DNA of 46,592 nt from Rhizaria sp. SCN 62-66 (taxonomy: Eukaryota): NCBI GenBank assembly GCA_001724265.1, contig MEDY01000119.1:62001-108592 (forward strand), read 5' to 3'. Positions 6,001-46,592 of this stretch are shown one piece after another. The notes beneath the pieces are model-generated. The model saw only the letters and a program-made list of their open reading frames with translations, made no database searches and was not told the DNA's origin. Numbering within the stretch: the stretch's first letter is position 1; each line of letters begins with the position of its first letter. A program made the translations under genes and the position numbers.

Positions 6001-9000
6001 GAGGCCGAGCTCACGGCCGCTGGCGCTGCGGCGCATGCCCTGCTTGAGGGCGATGCTGTTGCTGCAGCGGTTGCGATGAAGAGTGCTCAGGCGCCGTCAC
6101 AGGGACCGACTGCTGCTGCAGTAGCTGAACTCACCGCGAGCGCCAAGGCCATTGCGACCGCTCACCACACCGATGCCAAGGCTGGCAGTAGCACCGTGAC
6201 GAGCATTGTGGTCGCTGAACAGCCGCTGTTGCCGTCTCAGGTGCGCAGGATGGAGGCGCTTTTGGCGCAAGCACAGCTGCGTCCTTCGTCCGCTTCTGCT
6301 GCGCCCGTCGCTGCGTCTACCGCCGCCTCTTCTGGCTCTGTGACGGCACCGGCTGGCACTCTGGCTACTGCCGCGGCCGACGCCGACGCGCTGCAGTTCG
6401 CGGCGCTGGTGGCTGAGTCCGTGCTGCGCTCCGACGCCGAGTGCCGGCTGTTCGCGGACGCGCACGAGGAGGTTCCGTTTGACTCGAGCGACGTGCTCAA
6501 GCTCTGGGCGCACATTGCCACCACGCTTCCGGGCGCTGCCGCCTCCGCTGGACCCAACGCGCTTGTTGGCGGACTCGACCTCGAGCTGCTGCCCGCTACG
6601 ATCGCGCTGGCCACGCGCATCGGCCACGACACCGAGGCGTTGTCACTGAAGCGCGCGCCCACGAGCTGGGGCGAGTTCGCCGAGGTGGCCAAGCTGCTGT
6701 GGGACCGCGAGGCGCTGCGTCTCACGCTCGCGCGCGGCGACGTCGACACCGTGGGACGCGGACACATGTTCGATAAGCTCGTCCCGCTGGCCGACCCCCG
6801 CGAGGCCGTCGACACCGCTCGCGCGCTCGACCTCCTGGGCCGCGCTGCGGACGCGCTCGCCAGCAACGCACAGGCCGCAGACCTCTCCACTGGCACCGCC
6901 TCTGGACAGGGCACTGACGCGGCTGGGTCGCGTCTGCGCTCTCAGTCAGTGATCGGCGGGGGCGTTGTGTTGGGAGCCAACGAAGCTTCTGGCGCACTTG
7001 CAGTGCCGAGCAGCAGCAGTAGCTCCGGCAGATTCAGCCCGCTTACGCCCATGCTCACGGGCCGCGGCGGTGTCTTACTTGCTGCAGGCGCTGGATCTCG
7101 CCCTGGCACGAGCCACGGCCGCTGTTTTGACCTATCTGGCCCGGAATTGGCGTCTAACTCGTTCTCGGGGACACCAGAGGCGCCGGCGGTGCTTTTGCGT
7201 GCTTTCATTGCCCGTGCTGCGCCTGCCTCGCGTGTGCCTGCCTCAGTCGAGCTCGCCGCGCGCGCACGTGGCCTGGACAGCGTGATCTTGGCTGCGCAGG
7301 GCGACACCGCCGTGGCGTGCGCAATCGCGCGTGACCTCGGCGAGCGCGGTGTTGTGGCGGCTTCCCTCGCGGACCTGCAGCCGCGTGTTGCTGCTGCCGT
7401 CGAGCAGAAGCTGGCTGACACGCGCGCTGTGGTGACTGCGCTGCGCGCCGTTGCGGGCAGCAAGACCGCGCTGTTGCTGCCCTCCGCGGGCGCCGACGCC
7501 GCTCTGCTTGCGATCCCTGCGACCGCTAGTACTGACGCCGCTGCGACTGCTGCTCTCGTGAGCAGTGCGGCTTACGCGCACGCGTCCGCGCTGGTTACGG
7601 GCGCGGACGCCTGTTCCACTGCTGTGCTGAACGCAATTAGCGACATGAGTACTGCTAACGCTGTTGCTATCAAGGAGGGCCATCCTGCACCATTTGCTTT
7701 TGCAAGCTGGGAGGCGCTTGCTGAGGGTGTGTCTGCTCTTACGCAACGCGCTGCTCTGCGCACTTTTATCGAGACCAAGACCCCGCTCACGTGCACCGAC
7801 AGTCCTGCTGCTGCAGCGGCTAAAAAGGACGCCACGGTGACCCAGGGCTTTGTGCCGTCCGTGCGCAGCAATACCGCTAGCAGCACCGCAGCATTCCCCG
7901 ACTCCGCGATCGACGCTATTGTTGCCCTGAGCGGCGGTGATCTCGACGTCGCGCGCGCAGCAATGCGATTTGCCAAGCGCGCCGCTACCGCTGCTGCCAA
8001 CAAGGCCACCACTAACGGCAGTTCAAGCGCGGCCTCGGCTGCGGCACCAGTTGTATTCCTTGACGCGGCCCACTCCAAAACCAGCACCAAGACTGACAGC
8101 CCGGATTCCTCGAGCAGCGTCGCCAACAATGCCGGTAGCGCTTCTGCAGACACGCCGCTTGGTGCGGTGTCTGCGTTGCCCACTCTGTCCGGGACCGCAT
8201 TGTCGTCCGCCGAGCTCGTCGCCTTCGCGGCACGCTTCGCCGAACAGCATGCGCGCGCTGTCGCCATCGCCGGCGTCATGCTGCGCCACCCGCGCTGCCC
8301 GGTGCTGTCGCGCCGCCGCCTCGCGCCCGCCGCGGCTGAGGACGTGCCCCCGCCGGTCTCCGCGCCTACCGAATCATTTGGCGACAGAGATGTCGCGACT
8401 GCGGAGGCCGCGCAGCGCGGACTAGACTGGGACGTCGGCCGCGGCATCGCGTACGGCTCGCTGCCGACCGGCGCCGCGGCCACGGGCACTGCATCAGCGT
8501 CTGTGCAGCTGCTAGTCGACGCTGCTGTGGCTCCGCGCGCCGTGCGCCGGCTCTTCTTGGAGCTGGGCGAGGAGCCCCTGGTGTTCGTCGAGGCCCTTAA
8601 GGGGCTCGCACGCTTCATCGAGGCCGAATACGCCGAGGAAGCGCGCTTGCGCTCCAAGTCGCGTCTGCAGCTGGAGCGGCGCGTGCGCGTGCTCCACCCC
8701 GATCGCCGCCGCCGTCGCCGCGAAGACGACGATGACTCCGATGAGAGCAGCAGCGAAGACGAGGCCAGCGTGCTTCAGAAGGCCGTGAGCCCCACGGCGC
8801 CGGTCGACCTGGGCTTCGCGACACTGAACCCCGGCGTCGTTGTCGCTCTCCGCGGGTGGGCCGTTGCGACTCGCGACTCCACTCTCGCGGCTGCCGCTGC
8901 TGCTACAGGAGTGCAGTCGCAGCCGAATCGCGCGACGCTGCGGTCCCGCGGCTCCCGCGCCCGCAGTCTGCGTCTCACGGGCGGTCGGGAGGGCGACTTT

Positions 9001-12000
9001 TCGCTCCTGGCGCTCAACCTCAATTCTCAGGCTGCCGCTGCGTCTGCAGGGTCGGTCAAGGAGGGCGATGAGCCCGCATCTAGCCCGCTTGACGACAACG
9101 AGTTTGAGAAGCCTTCTGACGAGGCCCGCGCGCGCGCCCTCGCTGCGGCAGACCCGTCTGCGCCGAAAGTCACGTTTGGCGTCGCGCGCCGCAAGAACAA
9201 GGACGGCGATGATGACAACGACCGGCCCCCGTCGTCTCTTGAGAAGGAGGCTGCCGACACAGCTGCGGCCGCAGAGGCTGCTGAAGCTGCGACGGCGGAG
9301 GCGGTGACTGCTCTGGCGCAGGCTGAGGCTGAGGCTGAGGCTGCGGCCAAGGCCGAGGCAGAGTCAGCTGCCAACAGTGCCGCCGCCGCCGCCGCTGCCG
9401 CCGTCGCTGCGGAGATTGCAGCCAAGCGCCAGGCCGAGGAAGAGGCTGAGGCTGCTCGCCTGGCCGCTGTAGCCGCTGTGGCCGCTGCCGAGGCCGCGCG
9501 CTTGGCCGCCGAGCAGGAGGCCGCGCGTCTAGCCGCCGAGGCTGCTGAGACCGAACGCAAAGAGGCCGAGGCTGCCGCGGCGCGCACCGCAGAAGAAGAG
9601 CGCTTGCGCGCGGAGGCCGAGGCCGCCGCCGCTGCTGCCGCTGCTGCCGCCAAGGAGGCCCAGCTTGAGGCACTTCGTCAACAGAAGGCTGCTCTTGAGG
9701 CCGCCGCTGCGGCCGAGGCCGCTGCCGCCGCCGAAGCCGCCGCCGCTGCTGCTGCTGCCGAAGCTGAGCGCGCGCGCCAGGAGGAAGAGCGTCTCCGGGC
9801 TGAGCGCATCGCCGCTGAGACTGCCGCAGCGGAGGAGGCTGCCCGTATTGCCGCTGAGGCCGCCGCCGCAGTCGCCGCCGCTGCTGCCGCCGAGGCTGCT
9901 GCTGCCGCGGAGGCTGCCGAGGCAGCCGAGCGCATTCGCGCTGCTGCACTGGCAGACCTGTTGCGCGCGCTTGACGCTGCCGACGCTGAGACCGAGCGGC
10001 TTGAGGCTGAGGCCGCGGCGCGCGCCGCTGAGGAGGCCGCCCGCACCCTGGCGCGCGCCCACCGCGAGGCTGCTGAGGCCGAGGCGCGTCGCGTGGCCGA
10101 GGAGGAGCGCCTCGCCGACGTCATGCGCCAAGAGCGGCTCACCGCCCTGCTCGCCGCGGAAGAGGAACGCGAGCGACGCGAGGAGCTCGCCCGTCTCGAG
10201 GCCGCCGCCGCCGCCGCTGCCGCTGCGGCTGAGGCCGAGCGCGTGAAGCGCGCAGCTGAGGCTGAGGCTGCGCGCGCGGCTGCCGCAGAGGCCGAGCGCG
10301 AGGCGATGCGCGAGGAGCAGGAGCGCCAAGCTCAGCTTGCCGCGCTGCTGGCGGCCGAGGACGAGCGCGAGCGCGAGAAAGAGCTCGCCCGCGCGCGCGC
10401 CGCCGCCGAGACGGCCGCCGAGGAGGCCCGCCTGCGCCGTGAGGCCGAGGATGCTGCACGCAGGGCTGCCGCGGAGGCCGCACGGCTCGCAGCCTAGCAG
10501 GAGGCCGCGCGCCTAGCCGCGGAGGCCGCCGAGGCCGAGCGTGTGCGCGCTGAGGAGGAGGCCGCGCGGCTGGCGGCGGAGGCGGTCCAGCGCGCGCGCC
10601 TTGAGGCCGAGCGCGAGACCGAGCGCGAGCGCCAGCGCGCGCTGACCCAGCTGCTCGCCGCACTCGACAAGGCCGAGCGCGAGGAAGAAGAGGAACGTGC
10701 GCGCGCTGAGGCCGCCAGGCTCCTCCGCGTCGAGGCTGCGGCTGCGGCCGAGGCTGAAGTGCTGCGTCTGGCCGAGGAGGCCCGCGTGCGGCGCGAGGCC
10801 GAGGCTGCCGCGCGCGCCGCCGCCGAGGCCGAGGCGGCCGCGGAGCGCGTCCGCCAGAAGCTGTTGATGGCGCTGCTGCTGGCCGAGGAGGAGCGCGAGG
10901 TGGCCGAGGAGCTGGCGCGGCTGCGGCGCGAGAAGGAGGAAGCTGAAGCCCGCGAGCGGGCGCGCCTGGAGGCAGAGGCCGCCGAGGCCGCGCGCCGCAA
11001 GGCCGAGGAGGAGGCCCGCCTCGCGGAGCAGGCGCGGCTCGCCGAGGCCGCGCGTATCAAGGCCGAGGAGGCCAAGCGCAAGGCTGAGGAGGAGGAGCGC
11101 GCTGCTGCCGAGGCCAAGCGCAAGGCCGAAGAGGAGGCGCGCCGCGCTGAGGAGGCTCGTCTGGCCGAGGTTGCGCGCCTCAAGGCTGAGGAAGAGGCCC
11201 GTCTGAAGGCCGAGGAGGCGAAACGCAAGGCTGCCGAGAAGCAGAAGCGGCTCGAGGCCAAACGGAAGGCTGAGGAGGAGGCCCGAGTCAAGGCCGCCGC
11301 GGCGGAGGAGGCGCGCAAGGCTGAGGAGCGCAGGCTCGCGCTGCTCGAGGCGGAGCGCGTTGCGCGTGAGGCCGAGGCCGCGGCGGCTGAAGAGGCTGCT
11401 GCGGCGGCGCGGCTCGCGGAGCGACAGGACCCCCGCGCTGCCCGCGAGGCGCGCCGGCGCAAGGCCGAGGAAGAGGCCGCCGCACAGACCGCCGCGCTCA
11501 AGGCTGAGGTCGCTGACGAAGAGGCGAGCAAGAAGGCCGCCGAGGAGGCCAAGGCGAAGAAGGAGAGCGATAAGAAGGCCAAGAAGGACGCTGCGGCGGC
11601 TGCCAAGGCGGCCGAGGAGGAGGAGCAGCGGCGCGCGATGGCTGAGCTGAACCTGACCGCTGAGGAGGCCGCCAACGTGGAGCTGCGCGAGAAGAAGGGC
11701 AAGGTCAAGGCCGCGCAAAACGGCATGATTTTCGACGATAACTGGCACGACTTAGACCTCAGCGAAGCCGCCATGGACGCTGCACTGGCGCAGGACGCGG
11801 ACCTGTTCGACGAATACGTGTGCATGCATCTGCAGTCGCTTGAGCTCGAGCGCGTTGGCTTCGTTGGCTATCCCTATATCACCGTCGAGCGGCTTGACCG
11901 CACGGCGTGGGACCGCATGGGCGTGACAGAGATCAGTAACGGACAGCAGAGCTGGCTGTACCAGCCCCTCGTGCTCAACTTCAACAAGCTTACCGGCCGC

Positions 12001-13905
12001 GAGGGCACCAACCCCGTGCGACTGCAGTACTGGAACAACAACCGCGACGCCTCGCCGAGCGTGGTGGGCCAGAACACGGCGACATTTTCGACACTGACGC
12101 AACTTCGCGACGCCGGGCAGCCGCTGTACTTGTACCGGCCCGACTCGGACGCCAAGCGCGTGCCGAAGAACAGCGTGGGCAAGCTGATGGTGAAGAACCT
12201 GACCAAGTACTACAACACCACTAAAGCAGTCACAAGCTCGGACAAGCCGCGCGGCCGGTTGTTCCTGCAGGAGAATACCGACTGCCTGGTGCGGTTGCAG
12301 TTCGAAGCCAAGTCGCTTGACAAGGTCTCGCTCGTCGGCAAGGACGACACGTTTCTTCGTTTCTACCGTGCCAGTGACGCCTCTTTTATTAAGGGCAAGC
12401 GCACTGGCGGCGACGATGACTGGGAGCGCGTGCATGACACCGAGATCAAGGAGCACACGTCGTCGCCTCACTTCGACATGTTCGTGCTGCCCTCTGCGCT
12501 GCTGTGCAAGTGCGAGTATGACCGCCCGATCCTCATCCGCGCCTACGCCGCCGCGGCGCTGGGCTCGCCGACCGCGATCGGTCAGTTCCAGACCACGGTT
12601 CGCCAGCTGCTGTTTAACCCCGTGCGCAAGTACCCGATGATCAACGCGGAGAAGCAGAAGGCTTCGGCCAAGTACAAGCACTCCGGTACACTGACTTGCA
12701 ACGTTGTCCACGTCTTTTCGTCCGTGGAGACGGTCACGGCCGCTGCCCGCTACTCGCTTGCCCAGCAGTCGTCGAAGCGCAAGCTGCAGTCGCTCGAGGC
12801 CGCGTTGAAGCCCTTCCTTGCCTTCCTGAACCGCGGTGTCATTAACGCTCAACTCACTGCCGCGGACGCCGCCACGCTCCAGCAGCAGGTCGTGGCGCGG
12901 CTCGACAAGGCGCGGCAGGCCGTGAAGAAGAACGTGCGCGACCTCAAGAAGGCCGCGGACCAGGACCTGCGCGCCACTGCGTCCAAGGATCTGCTGGATG
13001 AGATCGACATCAAGACGGCGCGCGGGCAGGACAACATGCTCGCATCTGTCGCGATGCGTTCTTCCACCAGCTCCAAGCACGCTGGCGGCGGGCTCGCGTC
13101 CATGAAGGGCTCGGGCCTCGGCTCGGTCAAGGGCGGGATCGTCGCAAACGTGGACGCCGCGCTGGACCCCGACGCGTACTACAGTTGGCAGTTCCGCGCT
13201 ACGGGGCTGCCCAAGATGGACACCTTCGGCGTGACCGACCCCTTCCTGGAGGTTTCGTGCTTCCAGAACGGCAACTGGGTGCCTTTCCTGGCCTCGGACG
13301 TCGCCGAGAACGCACGCGCGCCGCGCTGGGAGCCGCTCGTGGGCAAGATCAAGTCGCTACTGAGTAACTGCGACCAGCAGCACCCGCTGCAGCTGCGCGT
13401 GTGGAACTGGAATAAGGCCGGCTCGCCCACACTCATTGGCCAGGCTGTCGTGCCCCTCGCCTCGCTGGTCACGGGCATCGCCATAACGGGCACCGTCCCC
13501 GCTGTGGCGGCGCCTTCGTCGAGCTCGACGCCGCCGACCATTGCGCCCGGGCAGCTGCTGCTGGAGCTCAAGAACCCGAACAAGAAGGACAAGGCTTCGG
13601 GCTTCCTCGTGCTCGAGGGCGCGGAGGCGCTGACGGACAAGCGTCAGCGCCGCACGCTATACATGATCGCCCAGTCGCGCGTTGAGGAGAACACGATGAG
13701 CGAGAAGGAGGCTGCGCAGCTGCTGAAGCAGATGGAGGCACGTCCCGGCACAAACCATGCCAGCTTTGGCGATAGCGCGGCCGGCACGGGAAGTGTCTGG
13801 GAGGGCATGAGCGACCGTGAACTATTGATGAGCCAGGCCGCGCGGCCCAAGACGGTATTCTCGCCCACGAACAGGAAGTCTAACCGTGGCAGCATCGGCA
13901 AGTAA
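1..13905 (+). CDS. Giant (at least 4634 aa, 5'-truncated) Ala-rich protein with a long Glu/Ala/Arg/Lys coiled coil and three C-terminal copine-type C2 domains; reads through one in-frame TAG (10495-10497)
   Basis: Frame is open from base 1 (CAG GCT GAG CGC...). ORFs 49..10497 and 10543..13905 share a frame and are separated only by TAG in the middle of the EAARLAAE repeat. Ends at TAA 13903-13905 followed by AT-rich DNA. C2-like segments lie at about 11815-12200, 12280-12720 (LQFEAKSLDK..KDDTFLRFYR..WERVHDTE..LCKCEYDRPILI..IGQFQTTV) and 13177-13620 (WQFRATGLPKMDTFGVTDPFLEV). Confidence 0.85.
9250..11700 (+). repeat. Low-complexity coding repeat (EAARLAAE / KAEEEAR type) forming a predicted coiled coil or single alpha helix
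   Basis: About 800 codons dominated by A/E/R/K with recurring units such as AEEEARLK, EAKRKAEEE and LAALLAAEDERER. Boundaries are approximate. Confidence 0.85.
10495..10497 (+). other. In-frame TAG inside coiled-coil repeat (probable sense codon)
   Basis: GCA GCC TAG CAG GAG GCC GCG CGC = RLAA*QEAARLAAEAAE. The sister repeat at about 9500 reads RLAAEQEAARLAAEAAE. Confidence 0.85.
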
Positions 13906-14506: not shown

Positions 14507-17343
14507 TCACGCCATCCTCATCTTCTTGACACCAACCATAAGTGAACCTTTACTGTCGTCGTTCACCGGCGTTGCACTTGCACTCCTGCTCTGAGCATCA
14601 TTACCAGCAGTTGCAATGGCAACCAAGCTTGCATTGCCGTACGACGTGTTCCCACCCGTGCTAGGAACAGGCGTGCTGATCGAGGCACCGGCACTGCCGG
14701 TGGCGACTGCAACTGCGACGGCAGCGGCCTCGAGCTCTGCGCCCAGCGCCAGGTCGCCCGCAAGCCGGGCGACGTCGGCCGGCCGCCGGCCTTGCGCGTC
14801 GCGCGCGCGCGGGTCCGCGCCGCGCAGCAGCAGCGCGCGGCACAGCACGCCGTTGCGCCGCATAGCCGCAATGTGCAGTAGCGTGCGCGCGCCAGCGGGC
14901 GCTGGCGCCGGTGCCAGTGCAAGGGGCACGGCCACCGTCAACAAGGCAGACGCAGATGTAGGAGCGGCGCCAAGAGCACTGGCGTTCGCGGCAGCTCCGA
15001 TGTTTGCAGCAACATGGGTGGGTGCAGCAGAGACTGCGCCGTTAGCATCTGTCATCGCCATTACTCCGCCGTTCGCCTTGTTCGGGGTTAGATTGTTGCT
15101 TGTCGCAGCCTTGTCAGTAAGCTTACCACCCAAACCAGAATTAGCGTTGGTGTTCTGCAAAGTGCCCGCGCAGTCGATCAGAGCGCCCGCGTCGAGCAGC
15201 GCAATGGCAATTTCGGTGTATGACTTAAGAGCAGCAATCATAAGTGGCGTCAGGCCGTCGTGCGCGCGCGGGGACGGACGCGCACCGGACAGCGTCACCG
15301 TTGACGCACTGTTGCTGGCGTTCGTCGTGATGCGTGGACGCAGCAAGGTTGCGACGACGGAGAAGTGGCCGTTTTGGACTGCCTTGTACAGCGGGGTCAC
15401 CCCTTCAACAAGAAAGTGATACAATTCGAAAAAGATCACATATTGAGTGAAATGACGATTGAAATCAGCCTGCAAAAATCCATTGAGCTTTCAGATTTGT
15501 CGCCTGGAAACGTACCGTCCGCCCGTGCCCTGTCGGGATCGGCCCCGCCCCTAAGCAGCGCCGCAACTGAGTCCGCGTGGCCATTCTGAGCCGCCGCCAG
15601 CAGCGCCGTGGAGCCGTCCCCGGCCGCCGCGGCGTCCACGGGCGCGCCGGCCGCCAGCAGCGCCACGATGGCGCCTGCGCGGCCCGCCTGCGCGGCGAGG
15701 TGGCAGGCGGTCAGCTGGGTTCCCCCGGCACGAGTGCACGGGTCAGCGCTGAGATGAAACAAAGATATACAACAATTATTACAGGATGTCGTCCAAGCAT
15801 GAGTACAGGTGCACATTTGAGACTGCGAGCGATGATACAGTGGACGCAAAAAAACAACACCAAACAAAATCCGTTTGAGGTTAAGTTCAACATTTGTTTT
15901 CATATCAACGTACCGCATTTTGATGAGTTGAATCACACAATCGGTGTAGCCGCCCGCGGCCGCAGTATGCAGCAGCGGCCAGCGGCCCTCGTCTGTCCCC
16001 ACCGAGTTCAGCACGCAGCTCACAGGCATAGACTCGGCTTCGCTCACAGCAGCGGCAGCAGCAGCAGCCTCAGCGGCGGCAGCGGCGGCGCGGGCGGGCG
16101 CAGCGGCGGCGCTTGCAGCAGCAACAGCGGCAGCAGCGGACAACACGACGTCAATATCGCCGTCGCCGTCGACGTCGGCTCTGGTCCCTGCACCTGACAC
16201 ACTCAGCCCGCAGTTGCCCTTGGCCACCCTGGCTTGGGCTGTAGCAGCAGCGCGCGCCGCAGGCGTCGCAGCCGCGCCGCCAGAGAGCGCCGGCGGATTG
16301 ATGTGCGCGACGTCGAAGCCTTGCGCGAGCGTGGCGCGCCAGGCGGCCTCGCGCTGGCGCTCCGCAGCGGCCACGGCCGTCGGCGACGGCGGCAGCGGCA
16401 GCGGCACCACTACGCCCGACGCCGCCGAGGAGAGCGACACGGTCGAGTCCACGGAGCTGTCACGGGACACGGGGGCAGCGGGCGCAAACGCGGCCTGGGA
16501 CGCCCCTGACTGCTGTTGCTCGGTTGGCGCCATGGCGACTGCGGTTGATGTTGCTGCTGCCGCTGCTGCTGACGTTGAGAGAAGGAGTGGGGGGCGGCGT
16601 TGAGGGCGGCCACGAGCAAGGTTCGGCGCAAATTGAGTCAGAGCAGAGGTGGTAGAACCGACAGCACCACCACTAAGCGCTCTTGTCGTCGTGCCGTTGA
16701 AGCTAGAGCTTGAATCAGAGGCGAAGCTCGAGTTTGCAGAGCTTGAGTTGCTGGTGTTCATATTAATACTACCAAAGGCGCTCGCAGGAACGCGCGGACC
16801 AAACATAGGCGTAAACACAGCGTTTGTCCTGCCGTCCGCGCGCTGTGCAGCAGCAGCCGCAGCGTTGGCCGCGGCGGCAGCGGCGGCGGCAGCAGCGGCA
16901 GATGTCGCGACTCGCGGCGCGGGGGGCTGCACCGGGCAGACAAGCGCAGCGGCCAGTTCGGCGTCGTCGCAGCGGGACAGCCCGCACGCGGCGTGATAGG
17001 ACACAAGCAGATGCAACACGGCGCTGTGCCCGCGTTGTGCTGCTGAGTGCACAGCCGCGGCGAAGCTATCCGCGAATACGCCTGGGGGTAGTAGCGGCAG
17101 TAGGTGCGAGAGTTCGGCAACGCCACCGGCCCGGGCGACATCGAGGAAGCGGCGTGTAGCCTGGGGCGCATTCGAGCGTGTACCAGAAGTGTGTCTAACA
17201 GGTATAGAGAGCGGGGATGTGGATCGCGTGCCTGACTGTTGCAGTGCAAGCGGGGAGATGGAAGTGGCAGGAGCAGCATTGAGGTCCTAGCCTGCGTGCA
17301 GGTTCAGCGGGGATACCCCGATGTTTCCGGCAAACTTCGGCAT
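14507..17343 (-). CDS. Ankyrin-repeat protein, about 852 aa; exons 17343-15914, 15748-15516, 15402-14507; in-frame TAG at codon 19
   Basis: Ankyrin motifs: FLDVARAGGVAELSHLL, AVHSAAQRGHSAVLHLL, PLLHTAAAGGYTDCVIQL, TACHLAAQAGRAGAIVALL, TALLAAAQNGHADSVAALL, TPLYKAVQNGH, TPLMIAALKS, TLLHIAAMRRNG. Two phase-compatible introns restore RARADGVTPLYKA. ATG 17343 directly follows AT-rich DNA; ends TGA 14509-14507. Confidence 0.85.
15403..15515 (-). other. Spliceosomal intron (113 nt, phase 1) of the ankyrin gene
   Basis: GTACGT donor and ...TTGTTGAAG acceptor, AT-rich. Removal joins ORF 15436..17052 to ORF 14507..15475 within an ankyrin repeat. Confidence 0.85.
15749..15913 (-). other. Spliceosomal intron (165 nt, phase 2) of the ankyrin gene
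   Basis: GTACGT donor and ...TTTCATCTCAG acceptor, AT-rich. Removal gives IQLIKMRADPCTR, a normal ankyrin turn. Confidence 0.85.
17287..17289 (-). other. In-frame TAG near the N-terminus of the ankyrin gene
   Basis: Reads MPKFAGNIGVSPLNLHAG*DLNAAPATS... in frame with the ankyrin repeats. There is no other in-frame ATG before the first repeat. Confidence 0.7.
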
Positions 17344-22226: not shown

Positions 22227-22821
22227 GCCCACTGACAGTATGTGTAGACGGTGTGGCGGTACGGGCCTATGATGTGTTGCGGTTGTGGAGAGAGACAGGG
22301 GTTCAGGTGAGGGACGCAAGGACAGTGTCGCGTGACGTCAAGACAGATCGCAGAATTGAAAGTGGACTATTTAGCGCCAGAGTCCGTCACTAAGCGCATA
22401 GTTTTAAGGGCAAAAGACAACTTAAGAATTTCAAATAATAACGATATTATATGCCCTATGCTTGTTTTCCTGATGGTGTTGCGCTATTTTAGTGACTACC
22501 CCGGGACCGACTCTTGAACGCGCTAGCGCGCCCCCCTCACGCAAGTCCGATTCCCGCACTTGTCGGGATATATCTTGTTATAAGCAATGATACTAGGGTA
22601 CTCGATTCATAGTATTAATATTTTATTTCATAACACGTGTATCATTGACATATCTCACTCACAACAACTTCTATCCCGACTTTCTCTTCTTTGCCCTCTC
22701 GCACCACCAATCCGAAATTTCGCACACACGCGTGCGCGCCACAAACAGCTTCAAAGCAGCGTATCACTTGACCACATATCACAGTTTGGAGCGCCGTATT
22801 TTGCTTTGCAGCACCCCGCCG

Positions 22822-25800
22822 ATGCTGTCCTCGCGCTTTGCATGCGCGCGCGCTCTCCTGCCGCGATCCCTAGCCGTGCACGGCTCCGTCGCCATAGCGG
22901 CCTCTGCCTCGCCGCCATACGCACAGACGACCGCCGGCTCCAGCTCTAGCGCCGGGGCTGTCGAGCACTTGCGCCCGTCACCGCACTCGGCGGTGTCACG
23001 TGCGCTTGCGACTGCGGCGGCCCCGAAGATGGCGCTCAAGCTGACGCCCGACGCCGCGGCGGCGCCGGCGACTGCGCGTGCGCCTGTGGCCGCGGCCAGC
23101 GGGAGCGCGGCTTCAGAGAAGAAGAGCAAGATTTCTGCGACGCCAGCTCAACGTGTCGCCGCCGCGAAGGCACCGCTTGCTGATGCACCCTCAGCAGCGA
23201 CTGCGGCTATGCCTGAGGCATCAGTGACCCAGACGGCCAATGGGACGACTACGAGGCCAAAGCTCCAGACTGTGCCCCCTGCAGCGGCGAAGCGGGCGAA
23301 GCCCGACACAGAGACGTTTGCGTCGCAGTTGAACTTTTTGCTGTCCCTATATCTACCCAAGACCACTCTCGACCCCATCTTTACTCCTGCTATGACAGCA
23401 GCATCCGCATCAGCATCAGCAGCCGCGTCACAGTCCCTCGCGCGGGTCCTGGAGCCGCTGGCCCCGCTGCTGCCGGCCCCGGTCGCCTCTGCGCTGCGCC
23501 CGCTGCTGTCGCCGCTGTCCGCCGCGGCCCAGCGCGCGCGCCACGCCGCGCTGTGCGCTGCTCTCGCGGCGGCCAGCGCGGCCTACTACAACTCGCCCGC
23601 GCCGCTGCTGCCTGACGCCGTGTTCGACTTGCTGCTCGCCGAGACGGAGGCGCTGGAGGCGCTGCGGCCCGCGCTACGCACCGCGCAGTCCCCGACCGCG
23701 ACCGTGGGCGCAGACGTGCGCACAGTCACCAGCGCTACCACAGGCACTGACCTTGCTGCTGGCACGAGCTTTGGCACTATTCCTGCGACAGCAAAGCGGT
23801 CCGCCGCGCTCTCGCGCCTGCAGGCCTGGGCCGCCGCGGCCAATGACAGCGACGCCAGTGCCTCCGCCTCTGCTGCGGGCGACGCGGCGGAGAGCGCCCA
23901 CATGCGGCACCGCGTGCCGATGCTGTCGCTGACCTCGACCTTCGATCCCGCCGCTGTGGTCCGCTTCGCCAAGGCCACCGCGCGCGCGCACTGGCGCCCG
24001 CTCCTTACCGCGCTTACCGTGCGCGATGGCGCGCACGCCGTCGCCGCCACCACCGTCAAGACCGCGAACTCGGTCACAACGCTGCTTGCGGTCAGTGAGC
24101 GCGGGCCTCCCGCTAGCGGTGCCAACGGCATTGAGGACGAAGAGAGCAGCAATAAGGCGGCGGCAGGGACCGGTGGCGGGGCAAGGAAGGTCAACAAGAA
24201 ATTCACCGCGAGGACGCGCGTTCCGCTGTACGTCCCTCTGCAAGAGCGTGGTGCGAGCGCTGGGGCACGCGGACAGCTGCCGATCGCCGGTGATGCGCGC
24301 ACAAAATCACCTGTCACCGGTCTCGGCGTTGCTGAGGGCGCGTCTGCGCTCGTTGTGCCCGCGCCGGCCCAGGCCCGCGCGACCGCGCTGCTGGGCCAGT
24401 GGTCGCTCGCTCACTCGCAGGCCCCGCAGGCGCGCAGCGAGATGCCGTGCGCACTGCAGGCGATGCCGCACGCTCTAGCCACTGCGAGGCTTGCGTCGCT
24501 GCTCATGGCCACGCTGCCACAGGAACCACAGTCTCTCAGCGCCGACACCGCTGGCGGTCAGAAGCTGCCGTTGTCTGCTGAAGCTATTGCGGGCGCCGGC
24601 GCCTCCCGTCTGCTGCTGAGTGCGGCGCCGCTGCTGGATCGTGCCGGCAGCCCCGCTGTGGCGCTGCTGACCGCGCACGCACACGCCGCGCTGCCGTGGG
24701 TTGCCGCGCTCGCGAGGCTGCGGTTTGCGAAAATCCATGCTGAGATGCGGCTTTCAAGCGAGCACGAACGCGTGACGATCAACGACGCACGGAACAGGGG
24801 CCGTGCTTTGCTTTTGTCTCTCAACCACAACGGTGACGCCATCGACGGCGCTACTGGCGACGCGAGCGCGGCTGCGGTGTACCCGCCACTGGCGCACACG
24901 CTGGAGCTCAAGTACGATGGCATGGCGCTGTCGCTGGCCTACAGCGGCGGCGCGCTTGCGACCGCGGCCACTCGCGGCAACGGCGCCGTCGGCACGGGCG
25001 TGCGCAGCAGGGTGCGGCGCCTGTGTCCCGCGCTGCCCACTGCGCTGCACGGGCCGAGCCACGGCGCCGACGCGGCTGCTGCTGCTGGTGGTGCTCACAA
25101 CCACAGCGAGGGCCGCGGCGGCTCGGTGCAAACCTCTTCTGGCCAGAAAAATACTACGCAGGATCGCAGCGCTGCAGGCCGCGTCAGTCACAATGACATC
25201 GCCGGTGACAAGAGCAGTCGATACCACACTGCTCTGCACAGCGAGCTTGCCGCCGCTCTGGCACCGATGCAGGCGGCGTTGGCACGCGTTTTAGTCGCGA
25301 CGACAGCACAAAGCTCGGCGACTGTTACATCAGACGCCACTGCTCACAGTAGCTTGGACTGGGCCTCGATGTCTGGCCAAGACGTCTGGGCACTGCTGCC
25401 AACCGAGGGGCAGGCAGAAGTCGCACTCGCACACACCGTATGGACGCAAAGTCAAGCCGCCTGGGGGAATATTCAAACCACCTCTTCTTCCAGTGACAGC
25501 GACGCGTGGGCAGCGTTCGTAGGCCTTGTTTCTGCGCCCATGACCCGCGACGAGTACGACGCACTCGTGCGCCCCCAGTCACTTGAGGCGCAACCACAAT
25601 CACCGGCACAGGCAGTGGCGCCGCTGTGGGCGGGCACTGTGGAGGTTCGCGGCGAGCTGCTGCTGCACGACGCGGAGTTCGCGCGCATCAACGAAGCGGC
25701 CGCCATCAGAGACACAGCCGCGGCGGTAGCAGCCGCAGCGGCAGAGGGCGAGGATGTGGAGGCTGCTGCCAGTGCTGCGGAAGCTGCAGGAATGCGCTTT

Positions 25801-28800
25801 TCAAGCCCCCGCAACCTTATTGTCGGCATTCTCGGCCGCGACGATGTTGAACCTGCTGTTGCTGCCGCGGCCGAAGCCGAGGCTGCCGCGGACGCTGCGC
25901 ACGCGCTCGCGGAGGCGCGGTCTGACGCGAAGTCAGGCCGCGTTGGCGGTTTGGCAAGCCGCGCGCTGCCTGGTGACGTGGTGAGCCGCGACCCTCTGTC
26001 GCCCAACACGCGCGCGGTGTTCGTCGCATACACGCTGATGATGTTCGAAGACTTGTCTCTGCCAACTGGCTCGCGCTACAGCACGAACCCGAACACGAAC
26101 ACCCATGCAGACAGCGCTGAGGTCCTCAGCTCAGATGCCGGCGCTGCCGCTGAAGCTGCGGCTGCCACCGCGGGTGCAGTGTCTGTGACACTGACGCTCG
26201 CCCCGCTTGCGGCGCGCGCCGTGGCGGCCACTGTCGACACAGAGGCCGCAGCCCATGGCCTCGATCCACTTGAGACTGACGCGTTGCTGATGCAACGCGT
26301 GCGCGCGCTGGCAGCGTCTTCAATCGATGACGCGGTCACCGCGATGGCTCGTGCGGCCGAGCCCGCGGCACTGGCCCGCGCTGCTGCCGCGCTACTGCCG
26401 CACCACGCGCGCCTGTCGCTGATGCGCTCGATGGGGTTCACGGTGGATCCCTACGCTACCGTGCTGACGATTCCCCCCAGTGAGCACGCAGATGTGTTGA
26501 CATCAGATAGAGATTCGCTTTTATCCGCTCTAGAGAGTGGCACAGCATTCAGTGCCAGCGTGGGCCCATCAGAGGTGCTTCTGTGGCCTGACTTAGACAG
26601 CCCGGAGGAGCTGAATTTCTACTCTGAAAGCAACATCAGGAAGAGCATTGCGAGCGACAAAGCTGCTAAGAAAGGCGTTGGTCTTGAACAGGCGGTTGGT
26701 GAGTATGTTCAGTCGCTGGCCTCCGCTTCGCTGGCGTTTGCCGGCGTCGGTTCCGTTGATTGGAGTGCGCTCACACTCAACAAAACTAGTGGTACAACGA
26801 ATTCGAATGACGAGGAGTCCGATGTATTTGACGAGATCAACCGCGGCTACAGCGCAGCAGTTGTGCGCACAGCAACTGAGCGCGCTGCGTCTCGCTCCAT
26901 CCCTCTGCCGTTCATCCCCACACAGTCGCCGTCGCAGTCACTCACGCAGTCCCGGTCGCACCCGATGACTCCTCTGTTCCGCCTCGCGTCGGCCTATCTG
27001 TTCACCGTGCGCCGCCACACCCCGCTGCGCACCGACGGGCTCGTGCTCAAGGTCTCCGACTCGGTCGCCACCATGGCGCTGGGCGCTGCGTCGCGGTCGT
27101 CGCGCGCCGCCATCGCCGTCAAGGCACCCGCCGCGCTCGCTGCCGCTGTTGCTCGGGAGCGAGGTGAAAAGACAGATACCTCAGCTTCAAGCAAGGCGAC
27201 GCCCGCTGCCACCGACGCGAGCAGCGGTGCTGGCATCGACGCCCACAACGCAGAGGTCGCGTCGCTCGTGTCGACCGCCCTCGGCGGCGCCGCGGCCGTG
27301 ACCCGGCTTCTGGGCGTGTCAGTGCAGATCGGCCGCTCCGGCCGCGCCACGCCGGTGGCCTCGCTGGCGCCCGTGCAGCTGGGCGGCGCGACGGTGGCCC
27401 GCGCGACGCTGCACCACCACGGCGCCGTGGGCGACGCGGACGGACCGCTGGCGGGGCTGAGGCGCGGGGACCTGGTCGTCGTGGAGCGGCGTGGCGACAT
27501 CATTCCCATGGTTAAGGCAAGGCTGCCAGATCATCTGCAGCAACAGCAGAAGCCGCAACAAAGAAAAAGCACGCAGTGCGATGATGAAAGTGACAAGCTG
27601 CTGCCGCGGGGCCCGTGCGGGTCATACCTTTGCCCGTGCGGACTGAAGACGAAGCTGGCGCGCAAGCCTCTTATTGCTGCAGGCACCAGCGCTGCTGGCA
27701 GTGCTGGAGGCAAGGGCCGCCGTGCTAGCAATGCACTCAGCGACGACACCGACTTTGAGCAACTCGCTTTCGAGGCTCTCGGCAACGGTAGTGCTGGTAC
27801 GAGCGCTCGCATAGCTGCTGCAGCAACGGGCACCGACGCCGACGCGTTTGATGATCCGCAGTTCTCTCCCACGGCTCAGCCCGGCTGGTCCGCGGCGCTC
27901 TTCTGCCCGTTGCCGCTGCTGTGCCCGGCTCAGTCGCTGCGCCGCCTCGCGCACTTCGTGTCCAAGGGAGCGCTCGACGTCGACGGGCTCTCGGCGCGCA
28001 CGCTGGCGCAGCTGCGCGCCGCGGGGCTGCTGCACGTTTCGCTCCCGGGGCTTGCCGCGCTCGCGCTGGACACGGAGACGCGCCGCGGACTCTGCAGGGC
28101 GCTGGGCGTGCCTCTGCTCGACGGCGACGGTGACGGGGGCGACAGAGAGTGGCTGCCACACCCGGACCTGCTGCCGCCCCGCGCGCGCGCCAGGGACCTG
28201 CTGTGGCAGTACGATCAGGCCTACGGGACCGGCGGCCGCGGCGGGAGTCCTAGCCAGAACATCAGCAAGACTGGTGTGGCCAACACTGCTGACGCTGCCG
28301 AGGGCGAGGACCAGTGGGAGTTTGCTCTGCCCCCCGCCTACCGTCTCCCGTTGGGTCCCGCCCAAGCCGCCCCCGTGGCCGGCGGCGCGTGCGGCGTCTA
28401 CGGCTGGCAGACTCGCAAGGCGCACCGCATGCTCACCGCGCTGTCGACGTCGCTGGCGGAGCAGCCGCTGCCGCGCTTGTTGACCGCGCTCGGCGTGCCT
28501 GGGCTAGGTCCCGCGGTCGCGGCGTTACTGCTGCGGCGCTTCAACGGCGACGTGCGCGCGCTCTTCGCGGCCACTCCCGCGGACCTCGCCGGGATCAAGG
28601 GCATTGGCGGGGAGAACGAGGGCGCCGCCGCGCTCGCCGCGGGGCTGCGTGAGGCGCTCAAGCGGGACGCGATGCCGCTCGCTCTGCTCGGCGTGCCTAC
28701 GTTCGCGCCGCTGTTGACATTAGCCGACGACCCGCAAGCTAATCGCAGGGGCTGCAGCGTAGCGAGCAACACCACTGATGCTGATGATAAACCTAAGAGC

Positions 28801-29571
28801 AAAAAAACGAGGTCTTCGAAGGACAGTGGTGTTGCAGTAAATAATGCTGAGGCTGGGGCTGATTTGTCCCCCATCGACTCAGCCTCTGTCTCCGCATCTC
28901 TCCACAGCCCTGTCCACGGCAACAAGTTTGCCATCACAGGCTCTCTCCGGACTCTGCGCGGGGAGGCCGCTCTAATGACCGCTGCCGCACTCGCCGCCGC
29001 AGCCGGAGACCCGCAGAAGGTCGGCGCGGTGGGGTACTTGCTGCGCGCTCTCAGGGGGTTGCGCGTGCCCGTTGATGATGGCGCGATCTCTGCAGCAGCA
29101 AAGGCTAATGACGCGCACGCGAGAGCCAAGTACGCAGAGATGGTGGCCGAGGTGGTCGCCACCGCTGTCGATCCCATTCAACACGCGCTCACGGCTGCGA
29201 CGAGTCGCACTGGAGCTGGCGCCAGCGCTGATGCAACGGGGGGCAAGGGCAAGGGCAGGGGCAAGAAGGCGGCCGCTGAGACTTCGAGCACAACGGCCAG
29301 CGACAGCTTCAAGCCGGAGCCGTGGCTGAAGCCGCTGTCCCGCGGCGACCTGAGCGCGCTGCTGGCGGCCGGCGGGGCCGAGACCGCGGGCTCAGTCGGC
29401 CGCGGCGTCACCGCGCTCGTGCTCGGCGGCGGCGACGGCGGCGTCAAGGAGAGCAGCAAGAGCGCCGCAGCCGCTAAGTCCGGGGTGCCCGTGATGGGCG
29501 AGGCGGAGGCGATCAGGCGGCTGCTCGCGCCCAAGGCCGTTGCTGTTGCTGCTGATGACAAAAGCAGGTGA
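22822..29571 (+). CDS. ligA: NAD+-dependent DNA ligase (bacterial LigA type), about 2249 aa, intronless, probable N-terminal mitochondrial presequence
   Basis: All LigA modules in order: domain Ia (YYNSPAPLLPDAVFDLL..SPTATVG, about 23584-23709), HRVPMLSL, motif I ELKYDG (Lys at 24910), ATRGNG, EVRGE, FSSPRN, TDGLVLKV, RAAIAVK, OB fold (QIGRSGRATPVASLAPVQLGGATVARATLH; GDLVVVERRGDIIP), Zn finger (CPCG..LFCP..LCPAQ), HhH (LGVPGLG, IKGIG), BRCT (GNKFAITGSL..GSVGRGVTALVLG..KSGVPVMGEAE). First in-frame ATG is 22822; ends TGA. Confidence 0.93.
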   Translation: MLSSRFACARALLPRSLAVHGSVAIAASASPPYAQTTAGSSSSAGAVEHLRPSPHSAVSRALATAAAPKMALKLTPDAAAAPATARAPVAAASGSAASEKKSKISATPAQRVAAAKAPLADAPSAATAAMPEASVTQTANGTTTRPKLQTVPPAAAKRAKPDTETFASQLNFLLSLYLPKTTLDPIFTPAMTAASASASAAASQSLARVLEPLAPLLPAPVASALRPLLSPLSAAAQRARHAALCAALAAASAAYYNSPAPLLPDAVFDLLLAETEALEALRPALRTAQSPTATVGADVRTVTSATTGTDLAAGTSFGTIPATAKRSAALSRLQAWAAAANDSDASASASAAGDAAESAHMRHRVPMLSLTSTFDPAAVVRFAKATARAHWRPLLTALTVRDGAHAVAATTVKTANSVTTLLAVSERGPPASGANGIEDEESSNKAAAGTGGGARKVNKKFTARTRVPLYVPLQERGASAGARGQLPIAGDARTKSPVTGLGVAEGASALVVPAPAQARATALLGQWSLAHSQAPQARSEMPCALQAMPHALATARLASLLMATLPQEPQSLSADTAGGQKLPLSAEAIAGAGASRLLLSAAPLLDRAGSPAVALLTAHAHAALPWVAALARLRFAKIHAEMRLSSEHERVTINDARNRGRALLLSLNHNGDAIDGATGDASAAAVYPPLAHTLELKYDGMALSLAYSGGALATAATRGNGAVGTGVRSRVRRLCPALPTALHGPSHGADAAAAAGGAHNHSEGRGGSVQTSSGQKNTTQDRSAAGRVSHNDIAGDKSSRYHTALHSELAAALAPMQAALARVLVATTAQSSATVTSDATAHSSLDWASMSGQDVWALLPTEGQAEVALAHTVWTQSQAAWGNIQTTSSSSDSDAWAAFVGLVSAPMTRDEYDALVRPQSLEAQPQSPAQAVAPLWAGTVEVRGELLLHDAEFARINEAAAIRDTAAAVAAAAAEGEDVEAAASAAEAAGMRFSSPRNLIVGILGRDDVEPAVAAAAEAEAAADAAHALAEARSDAKSGRVGGLASRALPGDVVSRDPLSPNTRAVFVAYTLMMFEDLSLPTGSRYSTNPNTNTHADSAEVLSSDAGAAAEAAAATAGAVSVTLTLAPLAARAVAATVDTEAAAHGLDPLETDALLMQRVRALAASSIDDAVTAMARAAEPAALARAAAALLPHHARLSLMRSMGFTVDPYATVLTIPPSEHADVLTSDRDSLLSALESGTAFSASVGPSEVLLWPDLDSPEELNFYSESNIRKSIASDKAAKKGVGLEQAVGEYVQSLASASLAFAGVGSVDWSALTLNKTSGTTNSNDEESDVFDEINRGYSAAVVRTATERAASRSIPLPFIPTQSPSQSLTQSRSHPMTPLFRLASAYLFTVRRHTPLRTDGLVLKVSDSVATMALGAASRSSRAAIAVKAPAALAAAVARERGEKTDTSASSKATPAATDASSGAGIDAHNAEVASLVSTALGGAAAVTRLLGVSVQIGRSGRATPVASLAPVQLGGATVARATLHHHGAVGDADGPLAGLRRGDLVVVERRGDIIPMVKARLPDHLQQQQKPQQRKSTQCDDESDKLLPRGPCGSYLCPCGLKTKLARKPLIAAGTSAAGSAGGKGRRASNALSDDTDFEQLAFEALGNGSAGTSARIAAAATGTDADAFDDPQFSPTAQPGWSAALFCPLPLLCPAQSLRRLAHFVSKGALDVDGLSARTLAQLRAAGLLHVSLPGLAALALDTETRRGLCRALGVPLLDGDGDGGDREWLPHPDLLPPRARARDLLWQYDQAYGTGGRGGSPSQNISKTGVANTADAAEGEDQWEFALPPAYRLPLGPAQAAPVAGGACGVYGWQTRKAHRMLTALSTSLAEQPLPRLLTALGVPGLGPAVAALLLRRFNGDVRALFAATPADLAGIKGIGGENEGAAALAAGLREALKRDAMPLALLGVPTFAPLLTLADDPQANRRGCSVASNTTDADDKPKSKKTRSSKDSGVAVNNAEAGADLSPIDSASVSASLHSPVHGNKFAITGSLRTLRGEAALMTAAALAAAAGDPQKVGAVGYLLRALRGLRVPVDDGAISAAAKANDAHARAKYAEMVAEVVATAVDPIQHALTAATSRTGAGASADATGGKGKGRGKKAAAETSSTTASDSFKPEPWLKPLSRGDLSALLAAGGAETAGSVGRGVTALVLGGGDGGVKESSKSAAAAKSGVPVMGEAEAIRRLLAPKAVAVAADDKSR

Positions 29572-46192: not shown

Positions 46193-46565
46193 ATGGCTAC
46201 GCACGAGGAGCTCAAAGATCTGGACTCCATCCGCCGTCGCCTCGAAAAGTTCAGCGAGGACCTGGGTAAGACCGTTGACAATGAGCTCCGCGCGGCCATC
46301 GAGGCCCAGGTGACCGCACTCAATCTAGAGAAGAAACTTATTGAGGTCAACGTTCGCCTCGACAAGTCCAACTCGGAACTGGATAAGACCGTTGACACGG
46401 AGCAACGCGCGACCATCAAGGCCCAGGTGACCGCACTCAATCTGGAGAAGAAACTCATTGATGCCAAGATTGACGTCCGAAACATGGTGGCCGGGGCTCA
46501 GGAGCGGGTTACTCGCTCCCGAGAAGCCCTCGACGCCTTCAAGCGCTCCGCGGCGGCGCCTGTCG
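46193..46565 (+). CDS. Partial gene (exon running into an intron at the window end): coiled-coil segment with a 39-aa tandem repeat
   Basis: MATHEELKDLDSIRRRLEKFSEDLGKTVDNELRAAIEAQVTALNLEKKL... stays open to a G|GTACGT donor at 46566. It is preceded by GCTAAC, a pyrimidine tract and CAG (46188), like an acceptor. Absent from the ORF track because no stop is reached. Confidence 0.7.
46268..46460 (+). repeat. 117-nt period tandem duplication (about 1.6 copies)
   Basis: AAGACCGTTGAC...GGCCCAGGTGACCGCACTCAATCT.GAGAAGAAACT.ATTGA starts at 46268 and again at 46385. Confidence 0.9.
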
Positions 46566-46592
46566 GTACGTTTCTTGTACATTTCTGTTTGC

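Follow-up and report, generated by a model that had tools for sequence, protein, structure and literature searches.

A single open reading frame (ORF) in contig MEDY01000119.1 of Rhizaria sp. SCN 62-66 encodes what sequence matches and predicted folds identify as a complete LigA-type NAD+ DNA ligase, with all six modules and predicted to be competent, in the nuclear DNA of a GC-rich, uncultured microbial eukaryote. We infer that the ligase is probably imported into an organelle, most plausibly the mitochondrion; any function of the inserts that it carries is likewise a proposal. The window analyzed is the whole stretch of 46,592 nucleotides, and coordinates refer to it.

Gene, domains and catalytic residues

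The ORF is unbroken over about 6.7 kb. Its reading frame is stop-free from 22597, giving 2324 codons, and the ATG at 22822 is the first past the upstream stop. Other frames of this 69% GC DNA contain spurious frames of 40 to 300 codons, far short of the 2324 codons of the ligase frame. An acceptor-like tttgctttgcag lies at 22800-22811, just 5′ of the ATG. Neither Rfam nor tRNA scanning gave a match in the window. The features considered are as follows.

22822..29571, plus strand: entire LigA gene of 2249 codons and a stop codon, for which no intron need be assumed
22822..23028, plus strand: presequence-like N-terminus, residues 1-69, with R5, R10 and R15, first acidic residue E48 and net charge +5; putative function
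23029..23520, plus strand: Ala/Pro/Lys-rich extension, residues 70-233, from ATG-70, with KKSK and KRAK patches; absent from bacterial LigA
23530..23709, plus strand: domain Ia (NMN-binding), YYNSPAPLLPDAVFD, with Y255, Y256, D265, F268 and D269; pLDDT >90, predicted fold similar to 5tt5
23884..27132, plus strand: nucleotidyltransferase (NTase) domain, residues 355-1437, in about eight core pieces separated by inserts
24910..24912, plus strand: Lys697 codon; by alignment to E. coli LigA the residue corresponds to K115 and is the predicted site of adenylation in the active site
27289..27534, plus strand: OB-fold domain, residues 1490-1571, PF03120; pLDDT >90, predicted fold similar to 2owo
27598..27936, plus strand: zinc-finger module with a 74-residue insert; C1604, C1606, C1695 and C1701
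27937..28707, plus strand: helix-hairpin-helix (HhH) domain, residues 1706-1962, carrying an insert of 102 residues; HHH_2 and fold match
28900..29538, plus strand: BRCT domain, residues 2027-2239, with a 129-residue insert; GNKFAITGS ... VTALVLGG, match to 9vse and fold
15403..15515, minus strand: spliceosomal intron GTACGT...AG, 113 nt, in a neighboring ankyrin-repeat gene; evidence for nuclear DNA

A sequence-only reading of this DNA had claimed a full LigA architecture, and domain Ia and the NTase, OB, zinc-finger, HhH and BRCT modules were all found by sequence and predicted fold. Pfam detected the NAD-ligase adenylation domain in three stretches (E 1e-17), the OB domain PF03120 at residues 1494-1572 (E 7.6e-19, 67.8 bits vs. 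a cut-off of 32.9) and HHH_2 PF12826 (E 4e-6, 27.3 bits vs. a cut-off of 27), and no Pfam match to BRCT was found in the ligase protein. The BRCT region matched PDB 9vse in sequence (E 0.006), and its predicted fold aligned with the RFC1 BRCT over 83 residues (Z 11.6, rmsd 2.3). LigA chains from PDB aligned as six collinear blocks, the best being 8ak4 (E 4.6e-31). NCBIfam scores fell below curated cut-offs (NF005932, 235.9 vs. 369 bits; TIGR00575, 215.3 vs. 444.45), the match being split into six stretches by inserts and the cut-off being an annotation threshold rather than a biological feature.

Alignment to E. coli LigA placed the catalytic KYDG lysine at K697 within LELKYDG and both aspartates of the domain Ia D-x-x-F-D motif at D265 and D269, as the earlier reading had proposed. 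The residues of E. coli LigA that contact NMN, which we take to be Y22, H23, D32, Y35 and D36, correspond to the five domain Ia residues given above, with H23 replaced by Y and Y35 by F. The NTase core motifs are PMLSL (366-370), K697-Y-D-G, E945 (VEVRGE), FSSPRN (993-998), D1405-G-L-V-L-K1410 and K1434. Conserved with E. coli LigA are D699, G700, R718, E945, R997, R1397, D1405, G1406, K1410 and K1434, and in the OB domain R1505, R1556, I1560 and I1561; all NTase and OB residues checked are conserved except R208 and T334, the latter changed to S, and the R208 position is His in a place where the alignment is uncertain. The predicted four-Cys zinc finger has its second Cys shifted, giving C-P-C instead of C-x-x-C, and R487 and G489 of the E. 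coli HhH domain are not kept.

AlphaFold2 (AF2) assembled domain Ia and the NTase domain from pieces scattered across 1200 residues, with pLDDT >90 for model residues 1-60 (domain Ia), and the model matched the E. coli LigA–NAD+ structure 5tt5 over 305 residues from chain residue 2 (Z 31.7, rmsd 2.1 Å). The C-terminal model (OB, zinc finger and HhH) matched E. coli LigA 2owo over 319 residues and up to residue 583 (Z 20.0). The protist ligase thus agrees with E. coli LigA (5TT5, 2OWO) in its six modules and their order, in its catalytic residues and in its predicted folds, which superpose, but it is nuclear-encoded, has C-P-C in place of the C-x-x-C zinc motif and has 2249 residues rather than 671.

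Nuclear context, expansion and expression

The intron in the adjoining ankyrin-repeat gene identifies the contig as eukaryotic nuclear DNA, in line with the eukaryotic surroundings described earlier. RSCU values of the ligase and of eight neighboring ORFs are correlated (r 0.78-0.94), and the Ala-rich style said to be shared across the region is seen in all nine ORFs (17-26% Ala). Three assembled contigs, the longest reaching 107 kb, each encode this protein. From the neighboring intron and the matching codon usage, the ligase gene belongs to the nuclear genome of the eukaryote itself, and the earlier view that it is not contamination holds.

Relative to bacterial LigA, the protein is extended by 233 residues at its N-terminus and interrupted by 16 inserts, each 21-226 residues long; together these additions make up 1550 of 2249 residues (∼69%). 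The pLDDT of insert sequence is mostly <50. The inserts are not microsatellite expansions, since a search for tandem repeats gave just two trivial arrays. The one ortholog found, P0003, also carries the expansion, with 61.8% identity in the core (407/659) and 37.2% in the inserts (439/1181). The frame, intact over 6.7 kb, and the conserved ortholog suggest that the gene is under selection. The N-termini of P0003 and of another relative, P0006, are truncated or incomplete. Metagenome scans yielded a single sequence (L001), which proved to be an ordinary bacterial LigA matched via a chance pattern in another frame, and did not recover the contig of P0003. A search of shorter proteins with the whole protein as the query scored no homolog, an outcome presumably due to Ala-rich words crowding the candidate list.

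Five short contigs from a polyA RNA library lie within the ligase ORF with 0-3 mismatches, insert regions included, and weakly support expression. No credible splice joint was found among the RNA-library contigs inside the ORF, which give no cover over 22704-23004. Four listed RNA joints were rejected as low-complexity artefacts, with sides of 20-22 letters and ends that are not intron-like.

Relatives and comparison with other NAD+ ligases

The ligase groups with P0072 (Paulinella micropora, EukProt), P0010, P0028 and P0006, apart from the sampled bacteria, archaea and viruses, in a clade with support of 90 (FastTree), 85 and 81 (SH-aLRT) and 91/79 in a fourth tree; all of its branches are long, and P0072 is the sole member with a named eukaryotic source. 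The C-P-C zinc motif is present in six of six clade members, and none of the 12 sampled LigAs from viral contigs falls in this clade. P0010 as a query matched only bacterial-type LigA, at ≤40% identity. In the phylogeny proposed as a check on the earlier reading of an endosymbiotic or horizontal origin, the grouping with P. micropora LigA was obtained, but an alphaproteobacterial sister was neither recovered nor rejected (p-AU 0.36) in a sampling of three alphaproteobacterial and no cyanobacterial LigAs, with the AU test run on 31 of the 70 rows of the tree.

P0072 shares with the ligase its clade in four trees, C-P-C, K-Y-D-G and a basic N-terminal extension, but has 699 residues and lacks large inserts and, as recorded, a BRCT domain. 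The LigAs of the red algae Cyanidium caldarium (KAK4536853.1) and Porphyridium purpureum (KAA8496128.1) are also nuclear-encoded with N-terminal extensions but have an ordinary C-x-x-C and normal sizes (768 and 850 residues, respectively), and came out as a clade of their own each time the tree search was unconstrained. Joining them to the ligase clade gave a tree whose lnL exceeded that of the free tree by 20.7 units (p-AU 0.84).

NAD+ ligases had been called sporadic in eukaryotes, which agrees with PMC2806865, where they are placed in Ostreococcus, Dictyostelium and giant viruses; these are likened here by published description. PMC9450145 describes three nuclear LigA genes in P. micropora, predicted to have a mitochondrial, a chromatophore and no transit peptide, respectively. 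Published work thus already includes LigA genes in eukaryotic nuclei, some of them predicted to encode mitochondrial transit peptides (PMC2806865, PMC9450145). A literature search with subscription journals outside its coverage found no paper localizing or assaying a eukaryotic cellular LigA, including in combination with mitochondrial proteomes. It is conceivable, though we hold it unlikely, that LigA is an old eukaryotic gene, possibly from the mitochondrial ancestor, surviving in scattered protists and algae as an organellar replicative ligase, and that in this organism conserved inserts dock replication or repair factors while two in-frame starts serve two compartments.

Cellular location and significance

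The N-terminus had been read as a mitochondrial-like presequence nearly free of acidic residues. The composition is as described: residues 1-47 are acid-free with net charge +3, the first 20 residues include three Arg, and E48 is the only acidic position up to residue 69. The presequence itself stands in part only, for the N-terminus is basic but not amphipathic, residues 1-30 having a helical hydrophobic moment of 0.10-0.18 where the protein as a whole averages 0.19, with 0.40 as its 95th percentile (a crude measure from 18-residue windows), and acid-free runs are common in the protein, five elsewhere being longer than the N-terminal one. Two in-frame starts differ in context, ATG-1 (ccgccgATGc) being weak and ATG-70 (aagATGg, with A at −3 and G at +4) stronger, and automatic gene calls for identical sequence use three other start sites, one of which is Met70. 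Organellar targeting is therefore plausible, given an N-terminus that is basic and acid-free but not amphipathic and a start codon that is unproven. The relative P0010 has a basic N-terminus with its first acidic residue at 68 and net charge +7 in 60 residues, and P0072 has a basic extension with a hydrophobic moment of 0.61; by analogy, these presequence-like N-termini and the transit peptides that PMC9450145 describes for P. micropora lend indirect support to an organelle.

In the reading that we favor, domain Ia would position the NMN half of NAD+, as in the established LigA mechanism, and Lys697 would attack NAD+ to form ligase-AMP. The OB, zinc-finger and HhH modules would clamp nicked duplex DNA, and transfer of AMP to the 5′ phosphate would lead to sealing of the nick. 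Growth to 2249 residues would have occurred in this organism and one known relative, via the N-terminal extension and 16 inserts placed between core elements, and the imported ligase would act on organellar DNA, joining Okazaki fragments and closing repair nicks.

Other readings were weighed against this one. If scanning ribosomes sometimes passed over the first AUG, whose context is weak (leaky scanning), one mRNA could yield two isoforms, organellar from Met1 and nuclear or cytosolic from Met70, a possibility that we regard as unlikely but worth entertaining. The two start contexts, the gene call beginning at Met70 and the basic KKSK and KRAK patches after it would fit, as would the precedent of Arabidopsis LIG1, which PMC4166229 reports to be sorted between mitochondria and nucleus by start-codon choice. 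However, the context rules are assumed from other lineages, the patches, although resembling nuclear localization signals, are short and lie in low-complexity sequence, and the RNA contigs leave the 5′ end uncovered. LIG1 is a possible analog in that its nuclear gene has two AUGs in frame and gives rise to an organellar ligase, a parallel drawn from start contexts only, but it is ATP-dependent and belongs to an unrelated cofactor class. The weak targeting features of the N-terminus would also suit a purely nuclear or cytosolic repair ligase, acquired horizontally as a back-up to ATP-dependent ligases, with the extension and inserts as protein-interaction regions; conservation of inserts in P0003 and the P. 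micropora LigA described without a transit peptide in PMC9450145 point the same way. We consider this improbable, as P0010 and P0072 bear presequence-like leaders. We also know of no nuclear LigA function in any eukaryote, which counts against it.

More doubtful still is targeting to a plastid or another endosymbiont-derived compartment instead of the mitochondrion. Residues 1-29 can be read as a weak signal peptide (a basic n-region, SLAVHGSVAIA, then A-S-A), but its hydrophobic core is short and interrupted by His and Gly. The red-algal LigAs with N-terminal extensions and the chromatophore-targeted LigA of P. micropora, as given in PMC9450145, offer parallels; on the other side, there is no plastid-related gene within the window, and the two runs containing the sequence come from one study, one of them labeled activated sludge metagenome, which is in keeping with a heterotroph but no proof of one. 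A relic, decaying or without catalytic activity, with its frame kept open by stop-poor, GC-rich DNA, or a chimeric or contaminant assembly, is disfavored as very unlikely. Long spurious ORFs are plentiful in the window and ∼69% of the protein is insert sequence of mostly low pLDDT, but the 2324 stop-free codons compare with ≤534 for ORFs that share their DNA with a longer frame, be it on the opposite strand or in a different reading frame, the catalytic residues are intact, inserts are conserved in P0003, codon usage resembles that of the neighbors, and three independent contigs bear the gene.

To our knowledge, the organellar DNA ligase is poorly known outside animals, fungi and plants. The ligase described here is an unusually expanded addition to the known nuclear LigA genes, adding a clear, intact case to the few on record. 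Its expansion is extreme for LigA and provides a natural map of positions where LigA tolerates insertions; understanding of the ligase mechanism is unchanged by it. The gene points to a LigA lineage common to Paulinella and this eukaryote. Because animals, as far as we know, have no NAD+ ligases, an organellar LigA could be a selective drug target if it is essential in protists.

An intact frame in a nuclear setting

Features of the ligase locus and its neighborhood
10867–13905, C2-domain gene
14507–17286, minus strand, ankyrin-repeat gene of at least two exons, with ankyrin repeats in both adjoining frames
15515 to 15403, minus strand, AT-rich 113-nt intron (GTACGT...AG) joining the two ankyrin frames
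22822–29571, plus strand, LigA-type NAD+-dependent DNA ligase, one uninterrupted frame of 2249 codons

The ligase frame is stop-free from 22597, with no in-frame ATG between the preceding stop and ATG 22822. Because the surrounding DNA is ~69% G+C, chance frames of 40 to 300 codons are frequent on all strands; the 2324-codon ligase frame is of a different order. Removal of the ankyrin intron restores the repeat across the junction, codon usage of the ligase matches that of eight neighboring ORFs (r 0.78–0.94), and gene calls on three contigs (24–107 kb) gave an identical ligase protein. One study contributed near-identical contigs from two runs, one of them a polyA RNA library; five short RNA-library contigs, for which DNA carry-over is a possible source, lie within the ligase ORF and reach insert regions, and no credible splice joint was seen in them. 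From the intron, codon usage, and three contigs, we conclude that the ligase gene is native to the nuclear genome of an uncultured eukaryote and not a contaminant, as the sequence-only reading had held. The Ala-rich style that it described is indeed common to the ligase and all eight neighboring ORFs (17–26% Ala).

An Ala-rich ORF (1–10497, plus strand; at least 3498 codons) continues beyond the window start and contains no Pfam domain with E ≤0.001. A 2.5-kb stretch (43700–46190) has 44% G+C versus ~69% elsewhere, with a single frame of at least 170 codons at its far end (45850–46497, minus strand). The short coiled-coil-like exon at 46194–46592 (plus strand), with two near-repeats (KTVD..E.RA.I.AQVTALNLEKKLI), begins at an ATG past an acceptor-like cttgcgcag and has a GTACGT donor shortly before the window end; by these signals it probably belongs to another intron-containing gene.

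LigA architecture and its expansion

Pfam detected the NAD-ligase adenylation domain (three stretches), the ligase OB domain, and HHH_2; NCBIfam LigA models matched six stretches (E 9e-70) with scores under the curated cut-offs, and PDB LigA structures gave six collinear matching blocks. Within a 71-sequence alignment, the ligase was compared with E. coli LigA at positions where mutagenesis of the latter has identified essential residues. Conserved residues are K697, D699, G700, R718, E945, R997, R1397, D1405, G1406, K1410, K1434, R1505, R1556, I1560, and I1561, together with all four zinc cysteines (C1604, C1606, C1695, C1701). The predicted catalytic lysine of KYDG is K697 (in LELKYDG), and domain Ia retains Y255, Y256, D265, F268, and D269, including both Asp of its D-x-x-F-D motif. 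In contrast, E. coli T334 is replaced by Ser, R208 by His (where the alignment is poor), and two positions of the HhH domain differ.

In an AlphaFold2 model of residues 235–1434 (73-row alignment; pLDDT ≥90 at 251 residues, <50 at 687), the confident parts come together as domain Ia and the nucleotidyltransferase fold, and match E. coli LigA with NAD+ (5tt5; Z 31.7, rmsd 2.1 Å, 305 residues); the scores for ATP-dependent ligases are Z ~12. For residues 1384–2249, the model (mean pLDDT 73) matches the structure of E. coli LigA bound to nicked DNA (2owo; Z 20.0, 319 residues), and its end matches BRCT domains (Z 11.6, rmsd 2.3 Å, 83 residues), a module missed by sequence profiles. Sequence and predicted folds together indicate a complete LigA with all six modules, bearing out the full architecture proposed earlier.

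Relative to E. coli LigA, the ligase is extended at the N-terminus by 233 residues and interrupted by 16 inserts (21–226 residues each); extension and inserts together account for 1550 of 2249 residues. The inserts lie between core elements in every module and are mostly modeled with low confidence; a tandem repeat scan ruled out tandem-repeat expansion. Among 1.84 billion representatives searched, only P0003 (2045 residues, N-terminus cut off) is of similar build. Its identity to the ligase is 61.8% in the core (407/659 aligned) and 37.2% in the inserts (439/1181), and the blocks FDPAAVVRFAKATARAHWRPLL and AALARAAAALLPHH are almost invariant. These identities and blocks indicate that the inserts are inherited and constrained, more loosely than the core.

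Phylogenetic position

After P0003, the nearest relatives are P0006, P0010, P0028, and P0072, the last from Paulinella micropora. All six proteins have L-C-P-C where C-x-x-C is usual, and K-Y-D-G is present in each of the five that cover motif I (all except P0006). They cluster together in all four trees, each on long branches, with support of 90 (FastTree, 109 rows), 85 and 81 (quick trees, 70 and 31 rows), and 91/79 (careful tree, 31 rows). The 70-row set comprised 37 of 88 labeled prokaryotic LigA loci, 12 of 80 viral loci, and 21 proteins; the trees included three Alphaproteobacteria and no cyanobacterium.

Grouping with the P. micropora protein was recovered and an alphaproteobacterial sister was not, the three Alphaproteobacteria falling among other bacteria. 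Constraining the six with Alphaproteobacteria was 10.1 lnL units worse than the careful tree (p-AU 0.36) and scored higher than the quick tree. Cyanidium and Porphyridium LigAs form a separate clade in free searches; joining this clade to the six by constraint improved on the free careful tree by 20.7 units (p-AU 0.84). The deep nodes are therefore not settled by these trees: a single eukaryotic LigA group is possible, and so is a mitochondrial origin.

The red-algal proteins (P0013, P0019, and P0041, from Cyanidium caldarium and Porphyridium purpureum) carry basic N-terminal extensions of 70–130 residues. For their relative Cyanidioschyzon merolae, the review PMC4166229 gives LIG1 as the only DNA ligase gene.

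The N-terminus and probable role

Automatic gene calls place the ligase start differently, and none of the RNA-library contigs covers the 5′ end. A polypyrimidine-plus-CAG motif, tttgctttgcag, lies at 22800–22811, its end 10 nt before ATG 22822; its resemblance to a 3′ splice acceptor suggests that there may be a 5′-UTR intron or upstream exon, which would bear on the true N-terminus. A 121-codon frame (22584–22949, plus strand, ATG at 22587) overlaps the start in a different reading frame and is possibly an upstream ORF or chance.

The proposed mitochondrial-like presequence fared unevenly. Residues 1–47 contain three Arg and no acidic residue, and residues 1–69 have a net charge of +5; however, the N-terminal helical hydrophobic moment is below the protein-wide mean, and the protein has five longer stretches free of acidic residues outside the N-terminus. 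The extensions of P0010 and P0072 are clearly basic. According to PMC9450145, P. micropora has three nuclear LigA genes, the first with a predicted mitochondrial leader, another with a chromatophore leader, and the third without a leader; that source and PMC7826189 treat Paulinella nuclear LigAs as imported organellar enzymes. Our literature search found no localization or assay of any cellular eukaryotic LigA. Given the leader composition, the relatives' basic extensions, and the P. micropora leaders, organellar, probably mitochondrial, use is the likeliest role, at slightly better than even chances. The leading alternative is dual use, with translation beginning at either of two start codons, ATG-1 (22822; C at −3 and +4) and ATG-70 (23029; A at −3, G at +4).

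That NAD+ ligases are only sporadic among eukaryotes agrees with Yutin and Koonin (PMC2806865), whose tree has Ostreococcus and Dictyostelium. The ligase described here is real and well formed, of a kind already known, and unusual in its expansion.
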